Source: a virus
Lineage: Duplodnaviria; Heunggongvirae; Uroviricota; Caudoviricetes
DNA length: 9,471 bases
Strand: one strand, 5' to 3'
IMG/VR virus record: IMGVR_UViG_2534681810_000007
Span: 1 to 9,471 of that record
A program made the translations under genes and the position numbers. Positions within the stretch are counted from its first letter, which is position 1, and each line of letters opens with the position of its first letter. The notes beneath the pieces are model-generated. The model ran no database searches and had not been told where the DNA came from. It saw only the letters and a program-made list of their open reading frames with translations. This document shows positions 1 to 9,471 of the stretch, piece after piece.

Positions 1-618
1 TCAGGCTTGAATACCTTTATCGAATCCCGGTAATAAAAACTGTCCCTGTCTCTCCAGACGTTCCAGCTTTGCAAGCAATTGAGGTTTTTTCGTTCTCCCC
101 CAGCGATTGAGCAGACGGCCTGACATGCTGGCGACATCCTTCTCTTTCATGTACTCCAGCATTACGGCGTTACGTTCTGCTTCATAACTTTCGCTGTACT
201 TACGGAGTTCTGCTGACATCCAGTTAAACGCATTGATATAGGCTTCTTTAACAGCATCGGCTTTTGCCCCGTTAAATCCCATAACCAGCATAACGAAGCC
301 ACTAAAGTCCATGCGGTAGTAAATCTGTTTCTTGTCAAAAATCCCTAAGTCATTGATTTTCTCGACGGCCCAAAAATGGGTTGTCGAGAATTCCTCAGAA
401 CATCTCAAACATTTAATAGCCCTAATCACATGCTGATGGCGTTTACCAAATGCCCTGGCAATCTGGAAGGTGTCAGTTACCGGTTGACCTTCTGCTGCGG
501 TAACTAACTGGCGAAAGTCGAAGTCATGATTCGCAATTAATTCATTCATGGCGTTGCCTGCTTCTTTGAAATGAACCTTTGCCGCACAGGAAACCAGCCC
601 ACCGAGGCTCGCCAGCAC
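1..618 (-). CDS. rha: Rha-family phage regulatory protein (antirepressor-like)
   Basis: Minus-strand ORF ending with a TGA at 3..1. The segment MNELIANHDFDFRQLVTAAEGQPVTDTFQIARAFGKRHQHVIRAIK resembles the N-terminal Phage_pRha domain, by recall. Two candidate starts: GTG at 618..616 with GAGGA 9 nt upstream, or ATG at 549..547 (MNELIA...) with a weaker AGCAGG. Position after the lysis genes matches the P22-type arrangement. Confidence 0.7.
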   Translation of the reverse strand: MLASLGGLVSCAAKVHFKEAGNAMNELIANHDFDFRQLVTAAEGQPVTDTFQIARAFGKRHQHVIRAIKCLRCSEEFSTTHFWAVEKINDLGIFDKKQIYYRMDFSGFVMLVMGFNGAKADAVKEAYINAFNWMSAELRKYSESYEAERNAVMLEYMKEKDVASMSGRLLNRWGRTKKPQLLAKLERLERQGQFLLPGFDKGIQA

Positions 619-702
619 TAACTGGTATCCTCAAAGGCCCATTCCAAAGGGTCAGGTTCGGTGTTTATTGTGCGCTGCGGTGCGCGGTGAAATACCGGTA
701 CA

Positions 703-731
703 AAAATGCCCCGCATCTGCGAGGCATTTTC
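703..731 (-). terminator. Imperfect hairpin with flanking T/A runs between Rz and rha; candidate intrinsic terminator
   Basis: aaaatgcc / ggcatttt arms at 703..710 and 723..730, with an inner cgca / tgcg stem. On the minus strand the stem is followed by TTTTTG, about 40 nt downstream of the Rz stop. Confidence 0.45.
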
Positions 732-767
732 CTGAAAGTCACTTGTTAAATTTCAGTGAAATTAAAA

Positions 768-1205
768 TTATTTTAAGCACTGCGTCCTGATGTATTCCTG
801 CAGGTAGTTAACCTGCGCGGTTATCTTGTCGATTCCACCTCGGAGACGGTAATAATTGAGTTCAGCATCTGCTGTAAGTCCTGGGCTTTCTCCATCGCCC
901 ATGCTGCTGGCTCCGGTCGTTGACTTTGCACAGGTGGCGGAGACTTGCAGGCGCTTACGCCCAGCAGAAACATCAGCACGGAGACTTTCGATAGTCGCAT
1001 TAGCATCAGCAAGCTCCTTTGTGTATCTGGCGTCGAGTTCTGCTACATCACGTTGACGCTTCTGCATGTCAGCGATGATGGATGTGGCTTTGTCGCGCTG
1101 GTCTTTGTAGGCGATGGCGTTATCACGGTAATGATTAACAGCCCATGACAGGCAGAGGATGATGCAAATAACCAGAGCGGAGATAATCGCGGTTACCCTG
1201 CTCAT
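768..1205 (-). CDS. Rz: Rz i-spanin (inner-membrane spanin subunit)
   Basis: Translation [36 protein letters not shown]... is nearly collinear with lambda Rz as I recall it. N-terminal TM helix followed by a coiled-coil-like periplasmic region. Start ATG at 1205..1203 overlaps the endolysin TGA stop (ATGA). Confidence 0.9.
821..1006 (-). CDS. Rz1: Rz1 o-spanin (outer-membrane lipoprotein), embedded in Rz in the +1 frame
   Basis: 61 aa, [27 protein letters not shown]...: signal peptide, lipobox-like VSAC and a proline-rich mature region, typical of Rz1. AGGAG lies 7 nt upstream of the ATG at 1006. Entirely inside Rz in another frame. Confidence 0.85.
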
Positions 1206-1699
1206 TGCTGCCCCCACAAACAGACTTCACGCTCAATATCACGACGGGTCATCAGCCCTTTCCATTGCTTACCGCCAGCGTATGTCCAGCGACGTAGCTG
1301 GTCACATGCGCCTTTGATATCACCCTGGTTTATTTTGCGAAGAAGCGTCGATGTTCTGAAATTACCAGCGCCCACGTTGTAAACGAACGAGTAAAGAGCG
1401 CCGCGCGTTGTTTCCGGTATATCGACTTTGATGTACGGGTTAATTTGTCTGGCGACCGTGGCAAGGTCTTTATTCAGGAGGGCTTTGCATTCTGCTTCGG
1501 TATACGTTTTACCGGGAATGATGTCTTTTCCGGTGTGTCCGTGACATACAGTCCATACGCCAACGATATCTTCGTATGGTATGTAGCTGACACCTTCCAG
1601 GCCATCGTCACCACTCGGACCAGTGATGAGCACAGACGCTATGGCAACAGCCCCACCACCAATAGCAGCAGCAACAGCCTTGCGTAATGATGGCGACAT
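1202..1699 (-). CDS. R: SAR endolysin (phage-21 R-type lysozyme with signal-anchor-release domain)
   Basis: 165 aa. N-terminal Gly/Ala-rich weakly hydrophobic SAR segment ([18 protein letters not shown]), then [24 protein letters not shown] with the E-D-T lysozyme catalytic arrangement. Near-identical to phage 21 R as I recall it. Start ATG 1699..1697 overlaps the holin stop. Confidence 0.92.
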
Positions 1700-1914
1700 T
1701 ATTCACCTCTCGCAGCCTTACGCTTATCTTCTTTAATCTTGAAATAAAGGTTTGTCAGATACGTCAGCAAGCCAAACACCAGGCTACCCAATACGCCTAT
1801 TGCCACCCACTGGGATGGGGAGACTTTGTCCAGCAACTGCAGTAGCCAGTATCCCGTCCCCACCGCTGACGTGGTGTATGACACACCTGTTGTTATTTTT
1901 TCCATCTGGTACAT
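1699..1914 (-). CDS. S: Pinholin (phage-21 S-type class II holin) with dual-start motif
   Basis: From the ATG at 1914 the product is 71 aa, [71 protein letters not shown]: two TM segments and a charged C-terminus, matching S21. GGGAGA lies 6 nt upstream. A second in-frame Met three codons later (M-Y-Q-M) is the holin/antiholin dual-start arrangement. The longer track ORF from 1959 has no ribosome-binding site. Confidence 0.88.
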
Positions 1915-1942
1915 ACCCCGTCTCCCGTTATCCGGAAGCTGA

Positions 1943-1977
1943 CAACAATAAAAAGCCACCAGTTAATTCCTGATGGC
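1943..1977 (-). terminator. Intrinsic terminator immediately upstream of the lysis cassette
   Basis: Minus-strand RNA would form an 8-bp stem GCCAUCAG / CUGGUGGC (one G.U) with a 7-nt loop, followed by UUUUUAUUGUUG. It lies about 30 nt upstream of the pinholin start. Confidence 0.6.
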
Positions 1978-2322
1978 CCTGATGCATAAACGTCATAATA
2001 CCTGACTGTTATGATTGACAATAATGATAATGTTTATATAGAAAGGTTCCCGATGTGTGTTACATATCATTTCTCCACGGGGAATATCCCCACGCCAGCG
2101 CAGACTCTTTTACCCGTTCTCTTCTGCGCTGGCTCTTTTTTATTATGCTGCTGCATTTACCTCTGGCACCATGCTTTCTATCTCAACACAATACGTGGTA
2201 CTTCTTGTAACCAATATCATAACGATTAATCGACATAGAATTTCTCCCGTGTACAGGAACAGAGTTAAAAAGCCGGAACCGGAATCAAATCACAGGATGA
2301 CCATCTGCCAGTGGCAGGTCAT

Positions 2323-2350
2323 AAAAAAAAGGCCGCGCCATGCGCAGCCA
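2323..2350 (-). terminator. Intrinsic terminator downstream of the moron gene (candidate tR'-equivalent)
   Basis: Minus strand reads ggcTGCGCatgGCGCGgcc followed by TTTTTTTT: an 8-bp GC-rich stem with one G.U, a 3-nt loop and a U8 tract. The plus strand has A8 before the stem and no T-run after it, so it is unidirectional. Confidence 0.65.
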
Positions 2351-2779
2351 GAACTCACAAGGAAAATGATAGAAGGAAATAACATTAGTGATGTACGCAT
2401 GGCGCCTCCCGCTAAGTTCTGCAATGATCAAACAGAACTCGCTACGTGCCCTTAAAACTCGATCATTTAGCCCCTCCAAGGAGGATTCACCATGCGGTTG
2501 ATTTTTTAATAAACAGTAAACAAAAAAGTCAAGAATTATTCATTCTGTTCTTTCATCATCGGCCACAGCAATACCACAATGCCGCAGACCAGAGCGCCAT
2601 CAGTCAGTACCAACATTATCCTGCTGGTGAAATCCATCATCACCATCACTAAAAGCAGGATCACAACAGCAAGCAGACACAGTTTATAAAACAATGTTCA
2701 GAAAACGCATTCAGCATGCCTAAGGTTCTATTCCTACGAATAGCCAACTTGCAACTTAAAATATTATTTATGCAGCCAA

Positions 2780-3538
2780 TTAAATTCTGGTCCTTACAAT
2801 ATCAACCTGAAGATTCTTATCTTGTGCTGATTGATAAATGACAAACCTTTTACTACCTGCATTGAAAGAAGTAGACAAAACCAGACAATTATCATAACGA
2901 GCAAGAACATAATACCAACCATCATTATAATTAATCATTTCATATTCTTTCTTAAACTGCGGTTTGTAATATCCTGTCAGAAATGAAAAAAGCCAGAAAT
3001 ATGCCACAAAAGCAATCATCACAATCTCAAAAAAATGTTTTTTTATAAATGGCTTATCATAGAAGCATGATACCGATAAAAATCGCCCATAAGATCTTAT
3101 CGAAATTGTAACCGCCAGCGCAATCGCTGCTGACAGTAGCAAAAGAGGTACCTGAATCTTCTGTCTCAATATAGAAAACTCAATAATTGCCGGCACAAAC
3201 AATAATTCCACAGCAAAATAAAGGCGAAATACATTTAGCTCTTGCATAGAATGTTTTCTTTTCACTGCGAAAAAGAATACAACACCAATACCCCAACCGA
3301 TAAGAAATATAGCAATGACGATAACTGCAAAAAATAAACTTCTGGCAACATCATCAACACCTGCACCTACAATCCACCATGGGAAGCCGTAGTAAAAAGA
3401 AGTACCCCATCCATAGAAATAAGCACTCCCCCATCCAAGGCATCCCATGTAGGCAATAAAAAGTGAAGAACTCCTGAGCAGCGCACCATCCTTCATAACC
3501 ACCCCAATACAAGATGATAACATTGGCTTACAACTCAT
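2780..3538 (-). CDS. Hypothetical multi-pass membrane protein of unknown function (AT-rich moron between pR' and the lysis genes)
   Basis: 252-aa ORF with about five hydrophobic helices rich in aromatic and Gly residues, and a ~60-aa hydrophilic C-terminal tail. The segment is visibly more AT-rich than the flanking phage genes. I recognise no family. Start is uncertain: the ATGs at 3538, 3523 and 3496 all lack a good Shine-Dalgarno sequence. Confidence 0.6.
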   Translation of the reverse strand: MSCKPMLSSCIGVVMKDGALLRSSSLFIAYMGCLGWGSAYFYGWGTSFYYGFPWWIVGAGVDDVARSLFFAVIVIAIFLIGWGIGVVFFFAVKRKHSMQELNVFRLYFAVELLFVPAIIEFSILRQKIQVPLLLLSAAIALAVTISIRSYGRFLSVSCFYDKPFIKKHFFEIVMIAFVAYFWLFSFLTGYYKPQFKKEYEMINYNDGWYYVLARYDNCLVLSTSFNAGSKRFVIYQSAQDKNLQVDIVRTRI

Positions 3539-3696
3539 AACAAAAGCAATTCAATGCCGTCAAGAGGTTACAGGCTAAAAAACTCTATTACATTGCAGTC
3601 AGCATGTTTACTACACAAATACAATTCAGAGCATAAAAACTACTCGGCGGCAGGTTATTGAGACTCATCAATGACATGTAAAAAACGCCCATTATT

Positions 3697-3732
3697 GGTG
3701 TCAAGTTTCCCCAAAGTTATTCAAAAAGTCAA
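3697..3732 (-). promoter_or_regulatory. pR'-like late promoter with qut/pause region, just downstream of Q
   Basis: Minus strand reads TTGACT-(17 nt)-GAAACT-TGACACCAATAATGGG. This is collinear with lambda pR' as I recall it (TTGACT-(17 nt)-TAAATT-TGACTCAACGATGGG), including the -10-like pause element in the early transcribed region (AATAAT here, AACGAT in lambda). Confidence 0.6.
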
Positions 3733-3774
3733 TATTATGCCGTTAATATGTTGCCATCCGTGGCAATCATGGCG

Positions 3775-4398
3775 CTAACGTGTGATCGCATTCAAAATGT
3801 TGTCTGCGATTGACTCTTCCTTGTGGCATTGCACAACCAGAGCGTCATACAGCGGCTTAACAGTGCGTGACCAGGTGGGTTGGGTAAGGTTTGGGATTAG
3901 CATCGTCACAGCGCGATATGCGGCGCTTGCTGGCATTCTTGAATAACCGACGCCTTTACATCTTCCGCACTCTTTCTCAGCAACTCTCCCCCACAGCTCT
4001 GTTTTGGCTATATCAACCGCACGGCCTGTACCGTGGCAATCTCTGCATCTTGCGCCCGGCGTAGCGGCACTACGGCAATAATCCGCATAAGCGAATGTTG
4101 CGAGCACTTGCAGTACCTTTGCCTTAGTATTTCCTTCAAGCTTTGCCACGCCACGGTATTTCCCCGATACCTTGTGTGCAAATTGCATCAGATAGTTGAT
4201 AGCCTTTTGTTTGTCGTTCTGGCTGAGTTCGTGCTTACCACAGAATACAGCCATTCCGAATCCGGCTTGTGATTGCGCCATCCCCATAGCAGCCATCACA
4301 TCAGTACCGGAAAGAGAGTCAGAAGCCGTGGCCCGTGGTGAGTCGCTCATCATCGGGCTTTTTGGCGAATGAAATTTAGCTATGCTTTCGAGTCTCAT
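3775..4398 (-). CDS. Q: Late-gene antiterminator Q (lambda Q type)
   Basis: 207 aa, [50 protein letters not shown]..., essentially identical to lambda Q by recall, including the Cys-rich zinc-binding region (CRDCHGTGR...CGRCKGVGY). Start ATG overlaps the phosphatase stop. Confidence 0.95.
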
Positions 4399-5060
4399 GC
4401 GCCTTCTCCCTGTACCTGAATCAATGTGAGGTTTCCGCAGAACACTGCGCCAGTATCGATATACATCTGGTTGGCAAATTTGAGTGGTTTCACTGCTGGC
4501 GTATGACCAAAGATGAACGTGTCCGCGCCTTTGATTTCTTTCACGATCCCGTCTTGTGAGTTGCTGATTCGTTCGCGGTTCCAGATTACCTGCTGATGAT
4601 CAACTGGCTTTCCAAACTCGTATTTATCACAAGGATAATCGGCGTGGCAGATGACATATTTTTTTCCTTTACTCACCAGTTCGATGATTAACGGAAGTTC
4701 ATCTGCTTTATGGGCAAGAGCTTTAGCCAGAATTTCTTTGTCGTAATCGAGATTAAAGAACCAGCCACCGCCATTAAGCAGCCAGTGATTGACGTTTCCA
4801 CGCTCTGATAAGCCATCAATCATCATTTGCTCATGGTTTCCACGTACAGCTCTGAACCAGGGGAATGTGATTAATTCCAGGCATTCAACGTTCTCTGCAC
4901 CACGATCAACCAAATCGCCCACCGAGATAAGCAGGTCTTTTTTGTTGTCGAATCCAATCGTATCCAGTTTGTTCATCAGGTTCGTGTAGCATCCGTGCAG
5001 ATCGCCAACTACCCAAGTATTTCGGTATTTGCTGCCATCAATTCTTTCGTAGATATTCAT
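4395..5060 (-). CDS. Ser/Thr protein phosphatase (lambda orf221 / NinI-like, calcineurin-like metallophosphoesterase)
   Basis: 221 aa with the metallophosphatase motifs GDLHG, GDLVDRG and GNHE, and a C-terminus ...[19 protein letters not shown] matching lambda protein phosphatase as I recall it. ATGA overlap with the ninG stop. Confidence 0.95.
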
Positions 5061-5680
5061 GCAGCCTCACTTCTGCTGTTTCGCAGTTTTTTAAGTTTCT
5101 GTTGATACTCCGCCTTGATGGTCCTGCACTCTTCGATAGTCCAGCGATGGCGGTTATGGTTTGATTCGATTTCGTCTACTGCTTCCTGCCCGATGCGGCT
5201 AATCAGTTCGACGCGATACGGAACGAGATTTCCGCTTTTGTGCTGGTTGCACACCACACATTGCTTGTGAATATTGCGTTCATCAAATCGGAGTTGAGGT
5301 GCCGCAGCAGTTGTCCGGTAATGCCCGGCATCCCACTGAGCAGACGTGAGCGTTCCGCACGAGATACATGGTAAGTCGCGGTCTCTTTCTCTGATGAAGG
5401 CGTTTACGGCTTGTTGGGCTTGTTTAATCCAGTAACTGCGGGGCTTTAAGGCGAGTTTTTGAATCTTAAGTTTATCTTTCTGTTTCTGCTCCTCTCGTCG
5501 TCGTTTCTTCTCTGCTGCCTTTTCTGCCTTTTCCGCTTTTTCGCGTTCTTTGCTTCGTCGTTCGAGTGCTATCTTGGTTCCACACTCTGGAGAGCACCAC
5601 CACTGATTAGCGAATGCAGGGTGAAACCATTCCCGACATTCATCGTTTTTACATCGTCTTCGCGCTGGTTTAGCCATCAT
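5057..5680 (-). CDS. ninG: NinG / Rap recombination-associated protein (structure-specific endonuclease)
   Basis: 207 aa, [42 protein letters not shown]..., with a lysine/glutamate-rich low-complexity stretch and a Cys-rich C-terminal half, matching lambda NinG. The start overlaps the 3' end of ninF. Confidence 0.92.
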
Positions 5681-5840
5681 CTTCTTCCTCGTGCATCGAG
5701 CTATTCGGATCGCTCATAAGTTCTGCGCAACAGTGCTCACACACGTGAACTTCCAGCACATGCAGCTTCTGACCGCAGTTAGCGCACGTTAAAGCTCGCT
5801 CGACGCTTTCTTGTTCGTAACTTCGATTTTGGTCAATCAC
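5670..5840 (-). CDS. ninF: NinF-like small zinc-finger protein
   Basis: My own translation of the minus strand (the ORF is below the track cut-off): (V/M)[55 protein letters not shown], which matches lambda NinF by recall. Apparent GTG start at 5840..5838 overlaps the ninE TGA (GTGA). Start codon is uncertain. Confidence 0.75.
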
Positions 5841-6019
5841 CTTGTTTTCCTCGCACGTTCTCTAAGCCACCGGATATCCCACAGGTGAGCCGTGTAGTTG
5901 AAGGTTTTTACGTCAGATTCTTTTGGGATTGGCTTGCGTTTATTTCTGGAGCGTTTCGTTGGAAGGTATTTGCAGTTTTCGCAGATGATGTCGGTGAAAC
6001 TTCGTCGCTGTCGTCTCAT
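5837..6019 (-). CDS. ninE: NinE protein
   Basis: 60 aa from the ATG at 6019, [60 protein letters not shown], matching lambda NinE. AGGAGG lies 5 nt upstream. The longer track ORF from 6064 has no ribosome-binding site. ATGA overlap with the ninB stop. Confidence 0.85.
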
Positions 6020-6426
6020 TCGTACCTCCTGTCGGTAAATCTGACACCCTGACCAATAGCCCATGCTGTCGTGTACTCAATCAGACTTGCCATACGCTTC
6101 ACACTCATCTGCGCGCTGCTTTCGCGAATGTTGACGCATTCGCCTTCAAGCCCGGGTAAAACATCAGCTTCCTGTTTCGTTGCCACTGCATGACCGCTTA
6201 TCAACAAAACCTTCCATTGTTCTGGTTTTAACCATTTGCCGCGCCACTGAACTTGCCTAGCGATATCTGCGACCATCGCGTGAAATTTTGCGTTCTGGTC
6301 AAGGTTGCGCTTGTAGTCAGTAATGCGGATGGTAACTGGCTTGTCTTTATCGAGTGGTGTTGCGAGGATGGCGTTGATTGCGGCTTGCTGTTGTTGCTTA
6401 GTTCGGAGGAAGATTGTTTGCTTCAT
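6016..6426 (-). CDS. ninB: NinB / Orf-family recombination mediator
   Basis: 136 aa. The block [35 protein letters not shown] aligns with lambda NinB RSLDQNRKLWACLGDVSRQVEWHGRWLDAESWKCVF (recalled). GAGG lies 5 nt upstream of the ATG at 6426. Confidence 0.8.
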
Positions 6427-6433
6427 CGTTACC

Positions 6434-6640
6434 TCAACTCACAAAACGCCACGCCACTTTTGCTACGACAACAGGCATAACACCGATAATCACCCACAGG
6501 AAAATGCTACCGAAAAGCACACCAACCAGGTCTTTACCTTCGCCTACCAGCCGGACAAAACTGCTGGCAACCACAATGAACGTCGCCACCATCCACATAG
6601 CACCGAGAATCCTCAATGCAGAAAAAATCAACTCAACCAC
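6434..6640 (-). CDS. Hypothetical small two-helix membrane protein (68 aa)
   Basis: MVELIFSALRILGAMWMVATFIVVASSFVRLVGEGKDLVGVLFGSIFLWVIIGVMPVVVAKVAWRFVS: two hydrophobic helices separated by a short charged loop. GGGGGAGAG lies 6 nt upstream of the ATG. It sits between the tR2-like terminator and ninB, and its stop is 8 nt before the ninB start. Confidence 0.6.
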   Translation of the reverse strand: MVELIFSALRILGAMWMVATFIVVASSFVRLVGEGKDLVGVLFGSIFLWVIIGVMPVVVAKVAWRFVS

Positions 6641-6650
6641 GATTTACTCT

Positions 6651-6687
6651 CCCCCAAATAAAAAGGCCTGCGATTACCAGCAGGCCT
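6651..6687 (-). terminator. tR2-like intrinsic terminator downstream of ren
   Basis: AGGCCTGC / GCAGGCCT 8-bp stem with an 8-nt loop. On the minus strand it is followed by TTTTATTTGG. This matches the lambda terminator that precedes ninB, as I recall it. Confidence 0.65.
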
Positions 6688-6712
6688 GTTACAAGCTCAG
6701 TGATGTAGATGG

Positions 6713-7003
6713 TCATCTTTTAACTCCATATACCGCCAATACCCGTTTCATCGCGGCACTCTGGCGACACTCCTTAAAAATTAGGTTCGTGCTCATCTTT
6801 CCTTCCCGTTCTTCCTTGGTAGCAAACCGGTAATACACCGTTCGCCAGACCTTACCTTCGATAACCAGAAGACCTGCCCGTGCCATTTTAGCCGCGGCCT
6901 GATTTATGCTGGTTACTGTTGCGCCTGTTAGCGCGGCAACGTCCGGCGCACAGAAGCTATTATGCGTCCCCAGGTAATGAATAATTGCCTCTTTGCCCGT
7001 CAT
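6713..7003 (-). CDS. ren: Ren protein (Rex-exclusion resistance)
   Basis: 96 aa, MTGKEAIIHYLGTHNSFCAPDVAALTGATVTSINQAAAKMARAGLLVIEGKVWRTVYYRFATKEEREGKMSTNLIFKECRQSAAMKRVLAVYGVKR, near-identical to lambda Ren by recall. ATGA overlap with the P stop. Confidence 0.9.
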   Translation of the reverse strand: MTGKEAIIHYLGTHNSFCAPDVAALTGATVTSINQAAAKMARAGLLVIEGKVWRTVYYRFATKEEREGKMSTNLIFKECRQSAAMKRVLAVYGVKR

Positions 7004-7243
7004 ACACTTGCTCCTTTCAGTCCGAACTTAGCTTTGAGTTCTGCGATCTTCGCCAGAGCCTGTGCACGATTTAGAGGTCTACCGCCCATGACAGGAAGTT
7101 GTTTTACTGGTTCAGGGATCGCCTCACCACGGTTAATTCTCGCAGTCATATGGACAAGCTCATCTGCGGCCTTACGGCGTAATTCCGCATCAGTAAGCGC
7201 ATTGGCCCGCATGTTCTGATACAGGTTGGTAACCAGCCAGTAG
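7000..7243 (-). pseudogene. P: Replication protein P, 3' fragment only (truncated at the IS boundary)
   Basis: The reading frame ends ...ELRRKAADELVHMTARINRGEAIPEPVKQLPVMGGRPLNRAQALAKIAELKAKFGLKGASV, matching the lambda P C-terminus. The first 9 codons of the track ORF 7000..7269 lie inside the IS inverted repeat, so only about the last 80 codons of P remain. Confidence 0.8.
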
Positions 7244-7315
7244 TGTAGTGGCACACTGAATTTGGCCACCTGAACAGAGGTGATATGCTCACCTCAGAAC
7301 AACACAGGTGCTCCA

Positions 7316-8484
<1,169 letters not shown>

Positions 8485-8493
8485 CCACTACAT

Positions 8494-9471
8494 AAAGAGT
8501 TCGGATTAGGCAGAGACAGACGTATAGCAATCACTGAAGCTATACAGGCCAATATTGAGTTGCTATCCGGGAACAGGCGTGAGTCACTGATAGACAGAAT
8601 TAAAGGCGCTGACGCAATCACTCTTCATGCGTGGCTTGACCGATATGAAACAATCCTCAGCGAGAGGGGTATCAGGCCGAAAACTCTACTCGACTACGCC
8701 AGCAAAATCAGGGCAATCCGAAGAAAATTGCCGGACAAACCGCTCGCTGACATATCAACGAAAGAGGTGGCAGCAATGCTAAACACCTACGTAGCAGAAG
8801 GTAAAGCGGCTTCCGCAAAATTAATCAGGTCAACCCTTGTTGACGTTTTTCGTGAGGCAATAGCCGAGGGGCATGTGGCTACGAATCCGGTAACAGCAAC
8901 CCGCACAGCAAAGTCAGAAGTAAGGCGCTCAAGGCTGACAGCTAATGAGTATGTCGCGATTCACCATGCAGCCGAACCTCTCCCAATCTGGCTGAGGCTT
9001 GCGATGGATTTGGCCGTCGTTACAGGTCAGAGAGTCGGCGATTTGTGCAAAATGAAATGGTCAGACATAAACGACAACCATCTTCACATTGAACAGGGTA
9101 AAACAGGGGCTAAGCTCGCCATTCCGCTGACGCTAACGATTGACGCGCTCAATATCTCATTGGCCGATACACTACAGAAATGCAGGGAGGTCAGCGGCAG
9201 TGAAACAATAATTGCATCAACGCATCACGAACCGCTTTCCCCGAAAACAGTATCTAAGTATTTTACAAAGGCGAGAAATGCATCTGGACTCTCATTTGAT
9301 GGAGACCCGCCAACATTCCATGAACTGCGTAGCCTGTCGGCGAGGCTATACCGGAATCAGATTGGCGATAAGTTTGCTCAACGTCTTCTCGGGCATAAAT
9401 CAGATTCAATGGCGGCGCGGTATAGGGACAGCCGAGGGAGAGAATGGGACAAAATTGAAATCAACAAATGA
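8494..9471 (+). pseudogene. int: Lambda-family tyrosine integrase lacking its N-terminus (about 34 codons removed at the IS junction)
   Basis: Translation from 8494 reads KEFGLGRDRRIAITEAIQANIELLSGNRRESLIDRIKGADAITLHAWLDRYE... and ends ...RGREWDKIEINK with a TGA at 9469..9471, collinear with lambda Int from about residue 35. Catalytic-domain residues appear present (GQRVGDLC, HELRSLSARLY, LLGHKSD, MAARYRD). There is no native start codon; the first in-frame start is a TTG at 8560. Confidence 0.85.

Follow-up and report, generated by a model that had tools for sequence, protein, structure and literature searches.

The window examined here, 9,471 nucleotides (nt) of a Caudoviricetes record (IMG/VR IMGVR_UViG_2534681810_000007, positions 1 to 9,471), is the late region of a lambdoid Escherichia coli prophage. 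It is read on the minus strand, to which all coordinates running from a higher to a lower number refer. Our concern is the switch that controls the late genes, i.e., the antiterminator Q, the late promoter pR' and the terminators that follow it. Lambda has its terminator tR' at about +190; in the window the first strong terminator lies at about +1370. Among the lambda-type cassettes listed in our survey, the lineage of the window is the only one in which the proximal terminator is absent and the -10 element of pR' is weakened. The best explanation of the region as a whole, which we hold with fair confidence, is late-gene control of a mosaic lambdoid prophage: tR' would have decayed, the checkpoint at which Q acts would have moved to two distal terminators, here called T1 and T2, and the cargo genes in between would mostly be transcribed from promoters of their own.

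The Q gene (4398-3775) encodes a lambda-type antiterminator of 207 amino acids (Pfam PF03589, E = 6e-58), of which 203 residues are identical in Q of the lambda-type phage HK630; identity to lambda Q is 98%. The pR'-like promoter just downstream (3704..3732, minus strand) was identified by alignment with pR'/qut as annotated for HK630 and lambda. An earlier reading of the window, made from the sequence only, had proposed this assignment together with the alignment that should decide on it. The alignment has now been run and upholds the proposal: 3732-3691 aligns base-for-base with lambda, and the nearly identical Q gene lies immediately upstream. The -35 element, TTGACT (3732-3727), is that of lambda. 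The 17-bp spacer (3726-3710), presumed to contain the Q-binding element, agrees with lambda in 14 of 17 positions. Against the TAAATT of lambda, the -10 element reads GAAACT (3709-3704); at the pause element, AATAAT (3696-3691) stands in place of lambda AACGAT, and GGG comes next in both sequences; the two deviations are exactly those noted before. The gap between -10 and pause element is one base longer than in lambda.

By consensus, this is not an impressive promoter. It matches 8 of 12 consensus positions, the -10 element alone 3 of 6, and a simple consensus scanner left it below threshold and did not flag it. The homology to lambda detected by megablast ends at 3700, which is practically the transcription start. 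Promoter and leader are unchanged in phage 2B8, which has been plaque-purified and amplified (Mathieu et al. 2020). Since 2B8 forms plaques with an identical region, the promoter variant supports a lytic cycle.

A predicted homologue of the sigma-dependent pause element is found at the position known from lambda. It comprises AATAAT (3696-3691), GGGCG and a run of six Ts (3685-3680), thus 3680..3696 of the minus strand. Variants of the pause region read AACAAT, or GGGTG and GGGCA, and the T run is kept in all of them. According to published descriptions, the Q-binding element measures 13 bp and is contacted at positions 1-4 and 11-13, and a consensus-like pause element was used for the structures of the Q-lambda loading complex; AATAAT is therefore compatible with Q loading. 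The spacer, with its 14 of 17 lambda matches, is also that of the viable phage 2B8, and Q may load at the variant site.

Some side observations on these elements may be added. The T6 run after GGGCG lies at about +12 to +17 and is retained in all leader variants (as T5 in one); the pause of the lambda polymerase at +16/+17 falls within the region of this run. In prophages that share this promoter, the tip of the Q arm, residues 131-145 (about 4008-3964), is a hotspot of polymorphism. Frequent changes are L135Q, R138I and V140A, the last of which is present in Q of the window; A131S, W136L/G, G137R and G145V are seen as well. The arm touches the Q-binding element at positions 11-13, where the spacer of the lineage differs from lambda (AA to CT). 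A strict covariation of arm and spacer was considered and rejected: four loci pair a lambda-like arm with the variant spacer.

The untranslated leader between pR' and the cargo gene is about 175-200 nt long, depending on whether the gene starts at 3523 or 3496. No terminator was found between 3700 and the cargo gene, neither by the consensus scanner nor by a scan of the whole transcript from pR' to the holin, and the leader folds no better than its shuffles (z = -0.04 and -0.17). The earlier view that no convincing terminator precedes the cargo gene thus stands. It is to be amended in one respect, since the interval does hold the remains of one. At 3656-3633 we find a decayed homologue of the tR' of phages 82 and 434, AACCUGCCGCCGAGUAG followed by U5, which is homologous to the terminator annotated in 434. 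The latter, AACCCGCUGCCGAGUGGGUU with U8, forms an 8-bp stem of -13.7 kcal/mol with its flanks (z = -3.1). The best hairpin of the decayed site, with a 4-bp stem and -2.2 kcal/mol, is matched in stability by 141 of 200 shuffles. Compared with the terminator of phage 82 (t82), one pair has changed on both sides (from C-G to U-A), and the site has lost two Gs of its 3' arm as well as the pair that closed the loop. The window accordingly has neither an intrinsic terminator shortly after the promoter, as is typical of lambda, nor the stable GC-rich hairpin with U tract that characterizes t82. In this state the site is essentially invariant across about 70 contigs.

The homology to 434 starts at 3639, within the T tract of the terminator annotated in the 434 record. 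Lambda homology down to 3700 and 434 homology from 3639 onwards are what we count for a mosaic junction in the favoured explanation. Judged from its folding, the decayed tR' copy would terminate poorly, and unmodified polymerase probably reads through the leader. Other ways to terminate there were considered. The leader contains 14.5% C and 22.5% G; being poor in C, it should be a poor substrate for Rho, and Rho-dependent termination appears unlikely from this composition. A GGCG/CGCC helix of the leader was rejected as a terminator: it ends 6 nt short of the U run, the minimum-free-energy folds of the variants differ, and the folding energies match those of shuffles, despite one double and two wobble changes.

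How common is this arrangement? We surveyed at least 166 loci with a lambda-type pR'; the hairpin limits were widened to admit the tR' of lambda, whose long hairpin encloses a loop of 10 nt. In the leader class of lambda proper, tR' has its U tract at +188 and a stability of -24 kcal/mol. A second large class has a terminator of -15 kcal/mol at +54. Terminators at +153, +188 and +359 occur in singletons, and a single locus has none within 400 nt. Taken together, nearly all of the about 97 loci that are not linked to the cargo have a strong terminator at +54 to +194. In the untranslated leaders of the about 69 cargo-linked loci no terminator was found; they have only irregular hairpins with poor U tracts, and these within coding sequence. 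The -10 element follows the same division: among the matches listed, GAAACT is present in 63 of 69 cargo-linked loci and in 0 of about 97 others, every other class having TAAATT. A few divergent cargo-linked loci (L071, L081 and L084) have kept TAAATT, as in L071 and L081, or TAAGTT and already contain the decayed site, which makes the decay of the terminator look older than the weakening of the -10 element. Because all this concerns a single lineage, the association of terminator loss and -10 weakening counts as one event.

The leader is always tied to the same cargo; in 65 viral contigs promoter and leader are nearly invariant. Upstream of the cargo two states exist, namely the lambda-type promoter together with the decayed site (about 70 contigs) and an 82-type promoter together with an intact hairpin (about 42 contigs). 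Complete E. coli genomes contain the junction of promoter and leader in 572 of 5,426 cases, O157:H7, O145 and O111 strains included.

The first strong terminator downstream of pR', T1, had been placed correctly by the sequence-only reading at 2323..2350. It consists of the hairpin GGCTGCGC-ATG-GCGCGGCC at 2349-2331 and U8 at 2330-2323. Its stem has 8 pairs, 7 of them G-C, and reaches -16.8 kcal/mol (z = -3.6; 0 of 200 shuffles are as stable). T1 is the terminator of PasD1, a small RNA (sRNA) of 173 nt (2495-2323), which is 100% identical (173/173 nt) to PasD1 of enteropathogenic E. coli (EPEC) E2348/69. The coordinates of PasD1 in NC_011601 are 1,060,260-1,060,432 (PMC8550237, Table S6), and its published 3' end lies in the U tract. 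PasD1 and its sister PasD2 are Hfq-binding sRNAs of EPEC that have been verified by Northern blotting (Pearl Mizrahi et al. 2021, PMC8550237). The U.G to U-A change in the stem of PasD2 is consistent with the T1 helix. According to a 2026 preprint, the PasD RNAs are proposed structural relatives of STnc100 and are located near Q genes. In our hands, the Rfam STnc100 model (RF02076) matches 2525-2320 with 37.7 bits, which is below the gathering score of 47.

The second terminator, T2, is predicted at 1980-1942, with a stem at 1980-1952 followed by TTATTGTTGT. The earlier reading had seen it at 1943..1977, some 30 nt before the pinholin gene, and the folding data bear this out: -16.2 kcal/mol, z = -3.6, and again 0 of 200 shuffles as stable. 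Its end lies about 30 nt, the start of its U tract about 48 nt, before the pinholin ATG at 1914. A counterpart is annotated at the same place in 434. In the loci compared, the 95 nt upstream of the pinholin ATG exist in 13 variants, 11 of which have such a hairpin (-14 to -21 kcal/mol) with a T run, located in these 11 at 48-55 nt from the ATG. The stems vary with compensatory changes, e.g., GCCAUCAG/CUGGUGGC versus GCCGUCAGUG/CACUGGCGGC. On this evidence, the predicted T2 belongs to the S21-type lysis cassette as one of its conserved elements. The mere number of terminator-like sites between 1900 and 3800 (2 versus 1.4 +/- 1.2 expected) is not above chance; T1 and T2 are taken as real because of their stability, their conservation and the published 3' ends in vivo.

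Expression data are available for a practically identical locus. From 3800 to 1690, the window is 99.8% identical to prophage PP4 of EPEC E2348/69, and mean counts for uninduced EPEC in activating medium are given in Table S2 of Pearl Mizrahi et al. (PMC8550237). In PP4, which like the window lacks tR', the upstream phage genes have counts of 0.4-2.3, Q 6.0, the cargo gene 147 and PasD1 8,652. The lysis genes score 5.4 (holin), 3.9 (endolysin) and 0.7 (Rz). In PP2 of the same strain, which has an 82-type Q and an intact t82, the figures are 69 for Q, 226 for the cargo, 11,017 for PasD2, 3.5 for the holin and 3.2 for the endolysin. In PP4 and PP2 alike, the lysis genes are at background, while the cargo is expressed without induction; per nucleotide, PasD1 exceeds the cargo mRNA about 240-fold in PP4. 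These data support the conclusion that lysis needs Q and the cargo does not. The idea that lysis depends on Q while the cargo may not had been voiced before, and this much of it holds: two terminators precede the lysis genes, which stay at background when the cargo reaches 147. That the missing tR' is the reason is unproven, since PP2 with its intact t82 expresses the cargo no less strongly. For the same reason the cargo probably has its own promoters.

In the explanation that we favour, the lambda-type Q, promoter, spacer and pause element would have been joined near the transcription start to a leader and cargo of the 82/434 type. The late promoter would fire without Q, probably more weakly than in lambda, and the polymerase would pause at the AATAAT element. 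In the absence of Q it would then pass leader and cargo and halt at the PasD1 terminator, about 1.37 kb from the start. Whatever leaks through T1, or starts between T1 and T2, would be stopped at T2, about 50 nt before the pinholin gene. With Q, the polymerase would cross T1 and T2 and enter the genes of lysis and morphogenesis. Cargo protein, DUF3927 protein, PasD1 and an Esr41-like sRNA would be expressed in the lysogen without Q; the cargo and both sRNAs may be regarded as functions of lysogenic conversion. Most likely, the cargo would be expressed mainly from promoters of the cassette, with a minor contribution of read-through from pR'.

A candidate for such an internal promoter, detected by consensus scan only, is TTGTTA-18-TGtTATCAT with an extended -10 element at 3543-3514. 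It would start transcription about 10 nt upstream of the ATG at 3496 and is conserved in lambda-type and 82-type contexts alike. For the sRNA, a hint comes from prophage Sp4 of O157:H7 Sakai. A bona fide STnc100 (138 bits) there lies only 37 nt behind a strong terminator, which suggests that the STnc100/PasD family is transcribed from a promoter of its own. The Q of Sp4 is a different one, and the locus of the window was not found at the expected place in Sakai; its STnc100 shares with the window only a TTGACT..TTAAAA..GCAUGGUGAAUCC block.

Several points weigh against this explanation. The candidate internal promoters are consensus matches only, and the sequence upstream of PasD1 fails the -10 rule of the scanner. 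With only 3 differences in 744 nt between the cargo copies of PP2 and PP4, the split of reads between them is unreliable and the comparison of their cargo counts is weak evidence only. The near-consensus pause element with its T6 run might lower promoter escape, an effect that is invisible to folding. Also, promoter activity and termination efficiency at the locus are predictions. As to the sequence upstream of PasD1, a -35-like TTGACT (2532-2527) and a -10-like AATAAT (2540-2535), which overlaps the stop codon of the DUF3927 gene, can be seen there; their spacing to the published 5' end gives no single clean promoter.

The data can be read differently. pR' itself could be the promoter of the cargo in the lysogen, with transcripts running to T1 and PasD1 as their 3'-end product. 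In function, PasD1 would correspond to lambda 6S RNA or to StxS of Shiga-toxin (Stx) phages, except that its transcript would measure 1.37 kb ahead of processing. The absence of a proximal terminator is in line with this, as is the constitutive nature of pR' in lambda and Stx phages (PMC7547250); further, the counts of PP4 jump directly after Q, from 6 to 147. The restriction of the weak -10 element to the terminator-less lineage (63/69 versus 0/~97 among the matches listed) would fit a selection against excess unterminated transcription. Yet PasD2 and cargo are equally or more abundant behind the intact t82 of PP2, PasD1 exceeds the cargo mRNA roughly 240-fold per nucleotide, the STnc100 relative of Sakai Sp4 lies behind a strong terminator, and the -10 element matches the consensus at only 3 of 6 positions. 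We consider it rather unlikely that pR' is the cargo promoter of the lysogen. The same doubt applies to the evolutionary extension of this reading, namely that a widespread lambda-type lineage has dropped tR', that the late promoter doubles as a lysogenic promoter of the membrane-protein cargo and of PasD1, an sRNA linked to virulence, that the PasD1 terminator acts as the functional tR' 1.37 kb downstream and that the -10 down-mutation is a compensatory tuning.

Still less can be said for a wiring that is functionally canonical, in which most unmodified transcripts would end in the leader after all, be it at the decayed hairpin with its U5, by a long pause at AATAAT and the U-rich hybrid, or by Rho. 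The site is, of course, homologous to a real terminator and has kept a compensatory pair (C-G to U-A) and the U5; the leader is long (200 nt) and untranslated, and in its 4-bp GGCG/CGCC helix the variants differ by one double change and two wobble changes. However, a hairpin of -2.2 kcal/mol that is equalled by 141 of 200 shuffles is not a promising terminator, the alternative helix stops 6 nt before the U run with minimum-free-energy folds that vary among variants, and the ratio of 14.5% C to 22.5% G is unfavourable for Rho; this possibility appears quite improbable to us. The least probable view, with hardly any credit on our side, is that the promoter is essentially dead, that GAAACT and the altered spacer drive neither cargo nor lysis and that we are dealing with a decaying remnant. 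A consensus match of 8 of 12 and the loss of the early region of the window prophage to an IS3 insertion could be quoted in its favour. It is contradicted by the identical region in the plaque-purified phage 2B8, by near-invariance in about 70 viral contigs and 572 of 5,426 complete E. coli genomes, and by the preservation of the critical -11 A and -7 T.

The individual parts of the system are all known: Q and pR' of lambda, the t82 remnant, PasD1, the Esr41-like RNA and the S21 cassette. With the Q/pR'/qut/tR' system of lambda, from which 6S RNA is made, the window shares the -35 element, the spacer length, the place of the pause element with its GGG and a 98% identical Q. A Q of PF03589, a pR' homologue downstream and terminators before the lysis genes mark it as a lambda-type Q cassette. 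It differs from lambda in the -10 element, the pause element and three spacer positions, and from about +1 the transcribed sequences are unrelated. The 434/82-type region and EPEC PP2 share with the window the leader from the T tract onwards, the cargo genes, PasD with its terminator, the terminator before the S21-type pinholin, and the SAR (signal-arrest-release) endolysin. In contrast to the window with its lambda-type Q and decayed site, 434 and PP2 have an 82-type Q and promoter and an intact t82 (-13.7 kcal/mol). They differ also between T1 and T2, where 434, PP2 and likewise 2B8 have a sialate (SASA) esterase gene and a convergent sRNA, PasA, both absent from the window, which has the Esr41-like sRNA instead; the homology to 434 and PP2 stops at about 2212 and resumes within the holin gene. 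The PP4 locus, with 100% identical PasD1 and the same cargo and holin proteins, shows no difference of substance.

A conceptual analogue for a pR'-derived PasD1 is StxS, an Hfq-binding sRNA of Stx phages, which is made from a constitutive late promoter and terminated by a bona fide tR' at a distance of 258 nt from pR' (PMC7547250). The window, by contrast, lacks a terminator near the promoter, and a separate promoter for PasD is probable. The published work on PP4 and the Pas RNAs (PMC8550237 and the 2026 Pas preprint) is concerned with the sRNA rather than with the wiring of promoter and terminators, and further sRNA literature of 2026 contained nothing on the wiring of this locus. The loss of the proximal terminator together with a lineage-specific weakening of the -10 element in a common lambda-type lineage was not described in the literature searched.

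The textbook version of the Q switch presumes a terminator right after a constitutive promoter. A variant without it is present in about one tenth of complete E. coli genomes, including EPEC and O157, and here the checkpoint controlled by Q would lie farther down, at the terminator of a regulatory sRNA and at that of the lysis cassette. Should pR' feed cargo and PasD1, the late promoter would be connected with lysogenic conversion and, in pathogenic E. coli, with the networks of Hfq and CsrA. If the cargo uses its own promoters only, the loss of tR' is merely tolerated, two terminators shield the lysis genes, and a modest point of annotation remains. PP4 (without tR') and PP2 (with tR') reside in one strain and thus offer a natural pair for asking what tR' does.

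On the minus strand, the genes of the window follow each other in the order ninB-ninG, NinI phosphatase, Q, the non-coding interval, the open reading frame (ORF) of a membrane protein and the DUF3927 gene; after about 600 nt without convincing genes come pinholin, SAR endolysin and Rz. The membrane-protein ORF is the cargo (moron) gene (2780..3496, minus strand). It encodes a multi-pass protein of unknown function (PHROG 1521) without any Pfam match, the same as E2348C_1012 and E2348C_0686. Start codons are offered at 3496, 3523 and 3538, the last giving the longest ORF. The Prokaryotic Genome Annotation Pipeline chose 3523 (247 amino acids), the 2B8 record and the EPEC annotation 3496 (238 amino acids), which is preceded by the Shine-Dalgarno sequence GGGGTGG; either is likelier than 3538, the start used in the sequence-only reading. 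The next gene (2694-2536) encodes a small membrane protein of 52 amino acids of the DUF3927 or TciB-like type (Pfam PF13064, E = 3.4e-14; PHROG 1470). The name says nothing about function, as the TciA/TciB literature yielded unrelated Trypanosoma papers and the naming in phage P1 only. The pair shows two attributes of a moron: genes that lambda does not have between Q and S, with a terminator at their end, and expression in the uninduced lysogen according to RNA sequencing of the 99.8% identical locus. For a promoter of its own, there is the consensus candidate at 3543-3514 and the expression in PP2 behind an intact t82, with ambiguous counts.

Two further reading frames overlap PasD1. An ORF of 64 amino acids (2285-2479, minus strand), named 'putative membrane protein' in the 434 record, lies inside PasD1, runs through its terminator and is probably not coding. 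Another frame resembles a lipoprotein signal peptide (MRTSLMLFPSIIFLVSSGC) that is cut short.

Between T1 and T2, the plus strand has an Esr41-like sRNA (2054-2143; Rfam Esr41, E = 0.005), convergent with the late operon and equipped with a hairpin and T run of its own; a promoter-like site lies at 2002-2031 (plus strand). The match to Esr41 (RF02676) reaches 32.3 bits, which is far below the gathering score of 102. The homologous feature of EPEC is annotated as a coding sequence (E2348C_1013, WP_012578864.1); its 2,064 reads fall 7.5-fold without Hfq. Its chimeras obtained by RNA interaction by ligation and sequencing (RIL-seq) look like those of an sRNA, map to 2100-2141 (plus strand) of the window and have the leaders of entC and dnaK among their partners. 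The 132-residue ORF at 2057-2455 (plus strand) is probably not a gene.

The window is 100% identical to a part of the chromosome of E. coli RM14723. At its far end, a lambda-type integrase gene, truncated N-terminally (8560-9471, plus strand), and a fragment of the replication gene P (7000-7269) flank an element of the IS3 family (7280-8484). The early region of this prophage is wholly lost, as immunity region, N, pR and O are missing, and its Q is therefore probably scarcely inducible in cis; lysis would need Q from a related co-resident phage. The sequence-only reading had overlooked this loss, as well as the identity of T1 with a known sRNA terminator and the convergent sRNA between T1 and T2. 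No tRNA genes were found in the window.

The lysis genes themselves are conventional. The class II (S21-type) pinholin (1914-1699; Pfam PF04971, E = 1.1e-32, and RefSeq annotation) has a dual start, and at 1905-1914 the Met1/Met4 motif typical of the S21 holin/antiholin is seen. It is followed by the SAR endolysin RrrD (1699-1202) and a spanin of the Rz type (1217-768), both taken from the ORF list and the RefSeq annotation of the identical RM14723 locus.

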